Source: Candidatus Heimdallarchaeota archaeon
Lineage (GTDB): Archaea > Asgardarchaeota > Heimdallarchaeia > Heimdallarchaeales > Heimdallarchaeaceae
Direction: 5' to 3'
DNA length: 64,000 nt
NCBI GenBank assembly: GCA_019057815.1
Contig: JAHLWR010000005.1
Span: forward strand, 64,001-128,000
This document shows, in pieces, positions 59,875-62,172 of the stretch; positions within the stretch are counted from its first letter, which is position 1, and each line of letters opens with the position of its first letter. The position numbers were made by a program, and so were the translations under genes. The notes below the pieces were generated by a model. That model was not told the origin of the DNA. It made no database searches and saw only the letters and a program-made list of their open reading frames with translations.

Positions 59875-60080
59875 GTGTTCACTATCGCTACTGATGTTAT
59901 CACGCGAGCATTTAATCTTGAATTAGTTGACATAGATCAAGAGTTCAATTACATAATCTTCAGTAAACTTTGTTCAACGCACGTTATGAAACTTGGTTAA
60001 AATTGCCAGAGGCTTTCTAACCGTCGTTTGAATGGTTCCCCTCACGTGCGTTGAGGGGAGGGAAGGATCGTGAAGATAAA
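59875..60080 (-). ncRNA. Candidate omegaRNA/reRNA of the large TnpB-like gene
   Basis: Hairpin TCCCCTCA/TGAGGGGA (60037-60059) whose loop is complementary to 59974-59984; further hairpins; ends at a T-tract (minus strand) near 59861-59873. Confidence 0.5.
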
Positions 60081-61975
60081 GGTCTACCTTGTTTTTCAGA
60101 GATGTTGAGAGCTGCATTGAAGTGAGTATTGACTTTCAGTCCACAGGCTTTGCAATAAGCATAGTCGTAATGACCAGAGTTGCGATCGAGTACTCCTCCA
60201 CAAACATTATGGAGTAGACTGGTATGGAAGGGATTAACTTGCTCTAGGTTAACATCATAACCTAGTTCTGAAGAAGCTAACCAGACAGCTTTTTCATAGA
60301 TGAAAGAGTTATCAGGCATGGTGTAAATAGCTTTAGCTAATGCACCTTTCGTACCTGTGGGATCGACGTTTAATTCCTCAATCTTCAAGACACGACTATG
60401 GTGTTTAGCTATCACTGTTGCTATAAAGAAGGGTAACCGTCGAAGAATTTCACGCAAAATCCTACTTCTGCGAGTATAGACTCTATTTAATTCCCCAATG
60501 AGTTTACAACAGCCATGAGAATCGCGTAATTTACGTTTTTCAGCTAATCCTCTATTGAGTTCTTTGAGAACTTTATCGGTTAAGAGGGTATAACGTTCTG
60601 CCAGTTTCAACAAATCTGGGGGGAGCTTAACAGGAGTGTTAAATGTCACCATAAACTCTCCCAAGCGGTTAATATCCACACCTAAAGTGGGGATATTTCC
60701 TGAGGGAATAGTAGTCATATAGTGGTGTAAGAGTGTAGTTGAGCGGAAACATTCGTGTGTTCCTTCTAAGACAACATCTACGCGAGGTTTGTAACTAGGA
60801 GCTTCACCACTGCTAACCTGCAAGATTTTAATGCTTGTTCCATTATGTAAATATTCCAAGACTTTGGGAGGGAAGAGTACACGGGCTTTAGTTTTCTTTT
60901 TTCCTCGTTGAGGGAAACCTAACTCTGTCCATCCTTGCTTTTTAACTTTTGCAGTCAATACTTTAGCATTACCCTCACGGGTAATAACAAACTCTTTTTT
61001 CATTAATAGTTTAATTGGTAGTTTTCCTTTTTTCTTTCTTTTAAATGGTTGAGGGATAACCTCTTCTGGTAGGGTAGAAAGAATTAACTGAGGGACACTC
61101 TCCATTAGATGATCAAAGAGTGCGAAAACGACTATCAACCTTACAGCTGAGAAGAGTTTTCGGTTTTTCTTACCTATAGATTCGGTTATCTGTTGAGCGA
61201 GCTTTTTGAGACTTTTCCAACGAGATTTTTGAGGGATGTTAATCCATGAAGTAACAAAAGAAGCAACTTGTTGTTTCTCTTGCACTAATAACTGCAATTT
61301 AGCTAGAAAGGACTGTTGATTAGGGGAAAGGTTGGGAATTGACGAAAACTCATGTATTTTGTGTTTATACGCGTCTTCTATAGCTAAAATAACTTCGTTA
61401 TGTGTCACAGTTGGTAATATGTGATTAAATTTCACATTGGAAGTTACGCATCTTCGCGCGAACTTTCTGTTCCAGTAGGAGTCTGTCTGTAACCTTGTAC
61501 TTGTCAAGAGGTTAATAACAAACCTTCTTCCCACTTTCCAATATTTCTGGAAACTGTGCTCAGTATAAGGTGATCGTCCGAATATTACCCATTCTAGTAA
61601 TTGTTGAGGGTTTTTCTGCCAGAAGTTGAAAATTCCTTGTATTTTCTTCTCTTTATCCACTTTTCCTTGAATGGCTATGTGTAACCAGTGGAAAGCACTT
61701 TCAGCTATATTCGGACTTTTACTCACTTCTTTGCATAATTTTCTTGTAAAGAACGTCTCTTTAGGGTTAGAACGGTAGAGTTCCAGAGCTTTTTTCACGA
61801 TTGCTGGTGTTAAGAGCTTTTTTTGCTCTTTTTCCAGCTCCTTTATACGTTGATTAATCTCTATTCTCTCTATCTTGCTCAAGTGTTCAAACGCCAACTG
61901 GTAACTTCTCATCACCTTCGCATGAGGGAGAGAGGGGTGTATTTTTGTTGTTGACTGTACTTGAGTAGACATCAT
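60017..61975 (-). CDS. Large (652 aa) TnpB-family RuvC protein with D-E-H triad and long N-terminal extension
   Basis: RuvC-I LGVDIN, RuvC-II LKIEEL, VNPFHTS, Zn finger HNVC...CKAC, RuvC-III NTHFNAALNI. Confidence 0.82.
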   Translation of the reverse strand: MMSTQVQSTTKIHPSLPHAKVMRSYQLAFEHLSKIERIEINQRIKELEKEQKKLLTPAIVKKALELYRSNPKETFFTRKLCKEVSKSPNIAESAFHWLHIAIQGKVDKEKKIQGIFNFWQKNPQQLLEWVIFGRSPYTEHSFQKYWKVGRRFVINLLTSTRLQTDSYWNRKFARRCVTSNVKFNHILPTVTHNEVILAIEDAYKHKIHEFSSIPNLSPNQQSFLAKLQLLVQEKQQVASFVTSWINIPQKSRWKSLKKLAQQITESIGKKNRKLFSAVRLIVVFALFDHLMESVPQLILSTLPEEVIPQPFKRKKKGKLPIKLLMKKEFVITREGNAKVLTAKVKKQGWTELGFPQRGKKKTKARVLFPPKVLEYLHNGTSIKILQVSSGEAPSYKPRVDVVLEGTHECFRSTTLLHHYMTTIPSGNIPTLGVDINRLGEFMVTFNTPVKLPPDLLKLAERYTLLTDKVLKELNRGLAEKRKLRDSHGCCKLIGELNRVYTRRSRILREILRRLPFFIATVIAKHHSRVLKIEELNVDPTGTKGALAKAIYTMPDNSFIYEKAVWLASSELGYDVNLEQVNPFHTSLLHNVCGGVLDRNSGHYDYAYCKACGLKVNTHFNAALNISEKQGRPLSSRSFPPLNAREGNHSNDG

Positions 61976-62043
61976 TCACTCAGTAATGTTATGTTTAAAT
62001 TAATATATAAACTACATAAAAAAACAGCTATTTTCCTTCTTTG

Positions 62044-62172
62044 TTATTTTCCTCTCCATTGTCTATGTAATCTCCCTGCAAATGAAGAGGCTAAAGCTAT
62101 CATGTCTTCCACCAATTTTCCTTCAGTTGATTGGTTTAATAGCTGATGTATAGCTACAAGTTTAGTGTTTTG
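62044..62172 (-). pseudogene. C-terminal remnant of an IS607-family serine-recombinase tnpA
   Basis: Translates QNTKLVAIHQLLNQSTEGKLVEDMIALASSFAGRLHRQWRGK*, matching the IS607 TnpA C-terminal helix ELVED(L/M)...SF(A/S)GRL; in-frame stop immediately upstream. Confidence 0.75.

Follow-up and report, generated by a model that had tools for sequence, protein, structure and literature searches.

The stretch of DNA analysed here, hereafter the window, comprises 64,000 nucleotides of contig C12 of a Candidatus Heimdallarchaeota genome (G000), and it carries on its minus strand the gene for a large TnpB protein in which a histidine occupies the position of the third RuvC aspartate (His-type TnpB). 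In our view, the locus very probably represents a 5'-truncated, non-autonomous copy of an insertion sequence of the IS607 family that is multi-copy in Heimdallarchaeia, and whose TnpB combines the histidine with an enlarged REC lobe. We further lean towards the idea that this protein is a still-functional RNA-guided nuclease that serves the retention of the element, and that it does so also in trans for miniature inverted-repeat transposable elements (MITEs). The window copy itself is immobilised yet apparently functional. Coordinates are those of the window unless a genome:contig label is given, G157 being the genome of a sister species.

The large TnpB and its RuvC centre

The TnpB gene is a single uninterrupted open reading frame (ORF) of 652 codons (1959 nt) that encodes the protein P0001 and shows the following features:

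60017..61975, minus strand: gene of the large His-type TnpB P0001, 652 aa (intact ORF, Pfam TNB match, AlphaFold2 model)
61022..61888, minus strand: enlarged all-helical REC lobe, approximately residues 30-318 (secondary structure of the model)
60956..61225, minus strand: stretch of suppressed synonymous variation, residues 251-340 (codon comparison, RNAalifold)
60122..60676, minus strand: RuvC catalytic centre, with D434 (GAT, 60676-60674), E533 (60379-60377) and H618 (CAC, 60124-60122)
60143..60211, minus strand: TNB zinc finger HxxC...CxxC, with the ligands H589, C592, C608 and C611

In Pfam, P0001 matches Cas12f1-like_TNB only (PF07282, 28.6 bits against a cut-off of 26.3), and the same search gave no match to OrfB_IS605. 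The motifs that hold D434, E533 and H618 read GVDIN, KIEEL and NTHFNAA, so that the first two residues of the canonical D-E-D triad are present and the third position is a histidine. When the family profile (GvDiN / iEdL / VNTHxNAA) was aligned with PDB sequences of Cas12f and TnpB chains, the D, E and H columns landed on the RuvC-I, RuvC-II and RuvC-III motifs, with VNTHxNAA lying over KVNADYNAA of CnCas12f1 (8hr5) and the histidine in the column of the catalytic Asp. The zinc-finger TNB sits between RuvC-II and RuvC-III and has four ligands in the order HCCC rather than C4. An intact 652-aa ORF, a D-E-H triad and a zinc finger starting with HxxC had all been claimed in a preliminary description of this DNA, and all three hold.

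The AlphaFold2 model of P0001 (71-sequence alignment; pLDDT 89.2, pTM 0.84) has the topology of TnpB and Cas12f, namely a WED strand (residues 21-29), a helical insertion (34-306), the remaining WED (320-410), and RuvC with the zinc ribbon. Residues 19-634 of the model align by VIA to ISDra2 TnpB (8h1j) with Z 15.1 and a root-mean-square deviation of 4.6 A over 338 of 362 residues, and the other matches are ISFba1 TnpB (8iaz, Z 15.2), AsCas12f (Z 15.4) and Fanzor2 (9b0l, Z 12.2). As modelled, P0001 encodes a full TnpB core consisting of WED, RuvC and the zinc-finger TNB. It shares with the TnpB-omegaRNA systems of ISDra2 (8h1j/8exa) and ISFba1 the whole-length WED-REC-WED-RuvC-TNB-RuvC topology (Z 15.1-15.2) and has the RuvC-I Asp and the RuvC-II Glu in register with them, whereas it differs in its length (652 aa versus ~400), in the RuvC-III His, in the HCCC finger and in the missing OrfB_IS605 match. 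Fanzor2, which the preliminary description had brought up, is no closer to P0001 than ordinary TnpB or Cas12f (Z 15.1-15.4), and no special link to it was seen in this comparison; like Fanzor2 and TldR, P0001 is a TnpB derivative.

The additional length, ~270 aa beyond the usual TnpB size, lies in the helical REC lobe, which is placed between WED strand 1 (residues 21-29) and the rest of WED (319-425). Folded alone, this lobe reaches a pLDDT of 90.7, and it has no significant match among solved structures, neither with Foldseek (best E ~1) nor in an exhaustive VIA search (best Z 7.9 over 85 residues, within helical noise); its language-model look-alikes are only unnamed helical clusters at ~0.93 and are uninformative. 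The first ~300 aa had been described as unrecognisable, which is true of the REC lobe taken by itself and untrue of the whole, as they constitute an enlarged helical REC within a fold that is otherwise ordinary for TnpB (Z 15 to ISDra2 TnpB).

Part of the coding sequence of this region shows a further peculiarity, in that synonymous variation is strongly suppressed at codons 251-340 (60956-61225, minus strand). Among 20 copies that are ~60% identical, the fraction of same codons here is 0.7-0.9 against an expected 0.3-0.4, which equals the strength of suppression at the overlap with the omegaRNA described below. The stretch includes invariant nucleotide blocks such as CAGAGTGTCCCTCAGTTA and CGAAAACTCTTTTC as well as two stems predicted by RNAalifold at ~61164-61095 with one covarying pair, it contains no overlapping ORF, and its constraint is not kept in copies of 40% identity. 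It is possibly an embedded RNA or regulatory element. A homology between this block and the interior of the MITEs was considered and proved too weak, with a local score of 24 that was reached by 7 of 500 shuffles.

With regard to the range of the family, a word-indexed search returned >130 relatives of ~620-690 aa, and all of those with a named source belong to Candidatus Heimdallarchaeota or Heimdallarchaeaceae. An exhaustive phmmer search of 1.84 billion representatives yielded 153 relative clusters only, the source-named distant members of which come from Heimdall-, Hod-, Odin- and Thorarchaeota and are in some cases 1200-1800 aa long. Both the relatives with a source name and a genome survey within the phylum point to Asgard archaea. 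No eukaryotic or viral relative of the His-type TnpB was found among the protein representatives and the phage and plasmid collections, and residues 320-640 of P0001 gave no tblastn match in the latter. Within the same taxonomic family, 25 of 28 genomes carry this TnpB family, usually with several matches each, and it is sparse elsewhere in the phylum.

The preliminary description had asked whether the histidine is conserved in homologs. D434, E533, H618 and the four zinc ligands H589/C592/C608/C611 are invariant among 34 sequences with identities down to 42%, and in a wider set of 71 (down to ~23%) the D, the E and three Cys remain invariant and the conservation of both His is no lower than 90%. 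When 283 retrieved proteins were aligned to the family hidden Markov model, position 618 was covered by 243 of them, with His in 234, Gln in five and Asp in four; the four Asp carriers are the weakest matches and have a canonical NADxNAA motif and a C4 finger. The first zinc ligand is His in 234 members and Cys in 13. As 234 of 243 members carry His at position 618, nearly all of them from Asgard metagenome-assembled genomes (MAGs), the alignment argues that it is an old clade-wide trait and not a private mutation.

Some of the distant relatives of His type have a two- to threefold length, namely P0187 (1669 aa, Hodarchaeales), P0191 (1784 aa) and P0163/P0271 (1327-1344 aa, Odinarchaeota). One source labels P0187 as a fusion to an antitoxin domain of the AbrB/MazE type, a feature reminiscent of the association of MazE/RHH with TnpB in clade RIIIr-4. 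As a further observation, at least 37 separate loci with a TnpB TNB domain are found in the 3.7 Mb of G000, mostly of a canonical length of ~400-505 aa, and only four of them are of the large His type.

What the histidine means for catalysis is the point at which the readings diverge. We would expect His618 to take the place of the Asp as metal ligand, with DNA cleavage by this centre being predicted only. It is conceivable, though fairly unlikely, that the whole family binds without cutting, i.e., that a D-E-H centre incapable of DNA cleavage acts as RNA-guided binder (a repressor or roadblock resembling Cas12m or TldR) or as processor of its own RNA while still being carried by IS607 elements. 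Such a view sits uneasily with the genuine role that His plays as a metal or catalytic ligand elsewhere among nucleases of the RNase H fold, such as in the Argonaute DEDH site, at H983 of the Cas9 RuvC and in Thermus RuvC, and with a family that is still transposon-borne and shows insertion polymorphism. It would agree with the replacement of the canonical third acidic ligand in essentially all members, with the G000 and G157 copies being old (dS 0.24-0.50) but conserved, and with the little recent mobility of archaeal TnpBs that is reported in the accessible text of Altae-Tran et al. (2023, PMC10691335). However, D434 and E533 are invariant across ~230-240 sequences, whereas according to the same text the known dead derivatives lose their motifs together (PMC10691335).

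That the RuvC-III Asp can be exchanged for His is already known in the literature. The accessible text of the 2023 census describes six TnpB branches with altered RuvC-III, the largest of which, RIIIr-4, shows an Asp-to-His change and has lost the C4 finger, it also describes archaeal branches (MazE, RIIIr-6, Ser-6), and it argues from conservation that the conserved Asp-to-His clades are catalytically active (Altae-Tran et al., 2023; PMC10691335). Compared by these descriptions, the present family resembles the RuvC-III-rearranged clades (RIIIr-4 including the archaeal MazE/RHH-TnpB; RIIIr-6; Ser-6) in its conserved Asp-to-His change, altered C4 finger, association with serine recombinases and archaeal range (PMC10691335). 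Unlike RIIIr-4, for which the loss of the C4 finger is stated, it retains a four-ligand HCCC finger, and the wording accessible to us is silent on whether HCCC would count (PMC10691335). An enlarged REC, a restriction to Asgard archaea, an ACCGT target and MITEs were not found in the accessible text of that paper. Among searchable papers, the census was the sole relevant work on TnpB with Heimdall and on RuvC-III with histidine. Cas12 descends from TnpB, which is also a source of compact genome editors, and a clade in which one catalytic Asp became His, and which is still conserved and transposon-borne, offers a natural experiment on RuvC chemistry.

The IS607 element family and its putative guide-RNA scaffold

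G000 contains four intact copies of the gene, namely the window copy on C12 (100%) and those on C27 (92%), C21 (88%) and C22 (42% identity). A complete element is ordered left end (LE), tnpA (a serine recombinase with a MerR-type helix-turn-helix), the own TATA promoter of tnpB, the large tnpB and right end (RE); full elements start immediately after ACCGT with CGTCCACTGAG...AAAAGTTGACTAATCTTGCC and finish with ...TTTCATAACGTGCGT. The C27 copy is preceded by a near-complete tnpA (locus L002; Resolvase 6e-20, MerR 8.6e-6), and intact tnpA genes of 186-197 aa stand before the copies in three sister-genus genomes (L017/L007/L019), which answers in the affirmative the earlier question whether homologs carry a full tnpA. 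As in IS607 of Helicobacter pylori, tnpA consists of an N-terminal MerR-type helix-turn-helix and a resolvase-type serine recombinase and lies upstream of, and co-oriented with, tnpB. The proposed oversized, IS607-derived TnpB-like protein is supported.

One insertion can be compared with its empty site. In the occupied G157:C137 the element (CGTCC...GTGCGT) stands between AAAAATACCGT and TAGTAATACC, whereas in the empty site G000:C18 AAAAATACCGT is joined directly to TAGTAATACC (...ATACCGT followed by TAGTAA...). Only CGT is shared with the element ends and there is no target-site duplication, which is likewise a property of IS607, where a short core is common to the ends and the target; insertion without duplication at a CGT core appears as expected for a serine recombinase. 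In contrast to IS607, the His-type family has a strong ACCGT context at the left junction, where this motif precedes six of six full elements and four of five MITEs, and tnpB has a conserved, predicted TATA promoter of its own. ACCGT is the predicted target-adjacent motif (TAM), because in TnpB systems the TAM is the motif of the left flank.

The right side of the window copy contains the following features:

59977..60059, minus strand: omegaRNA-like scaffold and RE (conserved, covarying structure; overlaps the last 14 codons of tnpB)
60059-60054 / 60042-60037, minus strand: scaffold hairpin 1 (TCCCCT/AGGGGA)
60050-60044 with 59984-59978, minus strand: scaffold pseudoknot between a loop arm (CGCACGT) and the 3' tail (3'-terminal ACGTGCG)
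60022-60016 / 60001-59995, minus strand: scaffold stem 2, which holds the stop codon (GGTTAGA/TTTAACC)
59979-59977, minus strand: terminal core CGT, the right end of the element
59957..59976, minus strand: predicted guide segment TGAACAAAGTTTACTGAAGA, made of host DNA beyond the RE (by read-through, in analogy to TnpB omegaRNAs)

From TTCCCCTCA... to ...CATAACGTGCGT the DNA is almost invariant in 23 copies that are only ~60% identical as proteins, and the similarity then stops abruptly, in the window at 59977 (...CATAACGTGCGT), so that the host flank starts at 59976. When the structure listed above was tested on 27 copies, 94% of the cells were paired, compared to 24-44% with the partners slid, and double compensatory changes occurred at nine pairs, whereas shuffles averaged 2.7 and none of 500 reached nine. 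Six of eight pseudoknot pairs covary (e.g., CACACGT/ACGTGTG, CGCTCGT/ACGAGCG, CGCATAC/GTATGCG). Since the homology between MITEs and element starts at 60058, the scaffold would measure ~82 nt (94 nt in MITEs). An Rfam scan of 59700-60700 matched no family. The scaffold is in keeping with TnpB-omegaRNA systems, as it overlaps the 3' end of the gene, has a pseudoknot and stops at the RE, and as the family is transposon-borne with many solo copies. Unlike in type V CRISPR-Cas systems with Cas12, no CRISPR array lies beside the gene: no spaced direct repeats were found in 54000-64000 and no tandem repeats in 50000-64000. The preliminary description had postulated a retained structured guide-RNA region, which is valid for the covarying scaffold at 60059-59977, while 59875-59976, which it had included, is host flank whose first ~20 nt form the predicted guide.

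A family of 371-bp MITEs was additionally observed in G000, with five full copies (C8:42394-42764; C1:35386-35757; C20:11817-12187; C27:57832-58202; C12:160785-161136; all outside the window) and fragments (C12:159530-159685; two on C33; C21:23676-23809; C36). They combine the LE and the TATA promoter of tnpB with the final 94 nt of the element, i.e., the omegaRNA scaffold and RE, and have ~160 nt of unrelated sequence in between; each copy has its own flank as a potential guide. Altogether, at least nine scaffold copies in G000 have seven of seven pseudoknot pairs, each with a different flank. The locus offers what a clean test requires, namely the protein, a scaffold of 82 nt whose ends are defined and a predicted 5-nt TAM, ACCGT.

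A proposed mechanism and the points against it

The mechanism that we favour is the ordinary biology of TnpB. The transcript would read through the RE, so that the adjoining host flank becomes the guide; the complex of TnpB and omegaRNA would recognise ACCGT together with a guide match, which is to say the element-free allele, and would cut there, and this cutting would favour retention or homing of the element. Occupied sites would be spared, since GTGCGT stands at the RE junction in place of ACCGT. The three close TnpB genes could also load MITE-borne omegaRNAs in trans, which would explain why the ORFs are under purifying selection after the decay of tnpA. In the archaeal lineage closest to eukaryotes, these tnpB genes outlive their transposase, and MITE-borne guide scaffolds are one possible reason.

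Several points weigh against a nuclease that still works for its element. No biochemical test of a D-E-H TnpB is found in the searchable literature, and the His may abolish DNA cleavage, in which case nothing but binding or RNA processing would be left. The putative omegaRNA with its 5' end and the read-through into the flank are predictions by analogy, and the TAM prediction is based on one empty site and the junction consensus. Each complete-length tnpA of this genus contains one nonsense codon, at codon 11 in G000:C27 (L002 860-1411) and at ~codon 109 in G157:C137 (L005 860-1411), with the adjacent tnpB being intact, and the nearest other IS607 tnpA in G000 is 37-39% identical to the cognate one; current transposition in this genus is therefore doubtful and a benefit from homing would be indirect. 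Lastly, the intactness of the ORFs may in part be owed to gene conversion besides selection.

A more far-reaching idea, which we regard as distinctly unlikely, is that the His-type RuvC centre of these Asgard-restricted large TnpBs is a working alternative active site with a different use of metals or a different chemistry, and that copies without tnpA are kept for the host or the MITE population, such that a few protein genes serve at least nine differently guided omegaRNA loci. If this was true, it would represent a step toward a host-level RNA-guided system, and the constraint block at 60956-61225 could belong to that system as a second RNA or regulatory element that has gone unrecognised.

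Fate of the window copy and its surroundings

On its left side, the window copy shows two features and a neighbouring gene:

62004..62011, minus strand: predicted TATA box of the tnpB promoter (conserved box TTTATATA)
62044..62172, minus strand: 42-codon C-terminal remnant of an IS607 serine-recombinase tnpA (tblastn)
directly adjoining the remnant: host ORF of 150 aa, single-copy in the genome

The frame of the remnant translates to ...GKLVEDMIALASSFAGRLHRQWRGK, followed by a stop, and is 77-89% identical to the C-terminus of the C27-copy tnpA (tblastn, aa 127/135-170), in line with the tnpA tail that had been noted earlier. Homology with the sister copies begins at ~62169, inside tnpA codon ~130, and upstream of the remnant no LE motif was found. 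As the LE and most of tnpA are gone, while a complete IS607 element has both and the RE is present here, the window copy is immobilised as it stands and therefore cannot move by itself, which substantiates the lost transposase and immobilised copy of the preliminary description. The sister species (G157:C134) has this truncated left junction too, again beside the 150-aa ORF, and the truncation is therefore older than the species split; the C21 copy is truncated at another point. Being single-copy, the 150-aa ORF can be dismissed as repeated cargo of the element.

The TATA-like box that had been noticed between the tnpA tail and the ORF is conserved as well. It reads TTTATATA at 62011-62004, ~30-32 nt before the ATG of tnpB, and GTTTAAATA in most copies, and a GTTTA(A/T)ATA box precedes the ATG whether or not a copy has tnpA, and occurs in MITEs as well. 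Judging from this conservation, the box may drive tnpB independently.

All five TnpB ORFs that were compared across G000 and G157 are open, and the dN/dS ratio is 0.13-0.19 in ten of ten pairs, so that the dN/dS check suggested earlier points to purifying selection on the close copies. The window copy and G157:C134 give 0.14 overall and 0.13-0.17 in each of four gene segments; they were rejected as a clean orthologous pair as the copies are mosaic. Pairwise identity of the copies swings between 0.81 and 0.99 per 200 nt, a pattern that points to gene conversion between them, and the coding sequence of G157:C134 is nearer to G000:C21 (dS 0.24) than to the window copy (dS 0.39).

These data bear on two further explanations. 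One is that the locus no longer functions and is the decaying remainder of a transposon, its ORF having stayed intact only by chance or through conversion from active copies, and to this one could relate the tnpA remnant here, the nonsense codons in the sister copies and the mosaic identity that implies conversion. We hold this to be highly improbable, as the 1959-nt ORF is open in all four G000 copies and in at least two copies of the sister species, dN/dS is low for every pair and every domain, and the pseudoknot is perfectly paired.

The other explanation, put forward in the preliminary description, is a domestication of the window copy, which the host would have turned into a fixed gene for RNA-guided regulation or defence. 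TldRs, which are immobilised like the window copy, have lost RuvC residues or the C-terminus and have guides to conserved host promoters. Here, by contrast, D and E are invariant, the C-terminus is full-length, the predicted guide matches its own flank only, and the RE-flank junction is absent from the sister species. In favour of domestication one could argue that the LE and nearly all of tnpA were lost while ORF, promoter and scaffold are intact, that the truncated junction beside the 150-aa ORF recurs in G157, and that dN/dS between these two copies is 0.14. However, the 24-nt guide flank has no second target in G000 with up to three mismatches, and the neighbouring 150-aa ORF is single-copy in the genome. 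Moreover, the G157 gene is nearer to another paralog and all copies are mosaic, and the gene is therefore not evolving as a single-copy host gene. According to the accessible text of the census, solo tnpB copies are the norm for the superfamily (PMC10691335). Considering also the multi-copy IS607 homologs, the empty and occupied sites and the MITEs, we regard domestication as very unlikely, and neither a domesticated regulator nor a special link to Fanzor is supported. Of the observations which the preliminary description had named as speaking against its proposal, the ordinary multi-copy IS607 setting of the homologs was found, whereas at position 618 His prevails among them (234 of 243) over Asp (four).

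The RE-flank junction deserves a closer description, as it is not kept in G157, where on contig C132 the RE flank of the window copy runs straight into DNA that in G000 is found 35.7 kb away, beside a MITE LE fragment. The 8-nt sequence GAACAAAG stands at both junctions (window 59976; G000 C12:159674-159705; L045 1441-1580). The cause could lie in a rearrangement or translocation that broke at element ends, or in an artefact of MAG assembly at repeats. The state of the window copy as a whole does not fit a fixed host gene that conserves its guide.

Two other TnpB sequences were noticed in the window. An ordinary solo TnpB element, encoding a 419-aa protein with OrfB_IS605 and TNB (ORF from 62860), occupies 62759-64000 on the plus strand and continues to C12:128147; it is precisely absent from the orthologous site in G157:C134, and therefore either inserted here recently or was lost from the sister species. 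A further TnpB fragment is located at ~50234-50435 on the plus strand.

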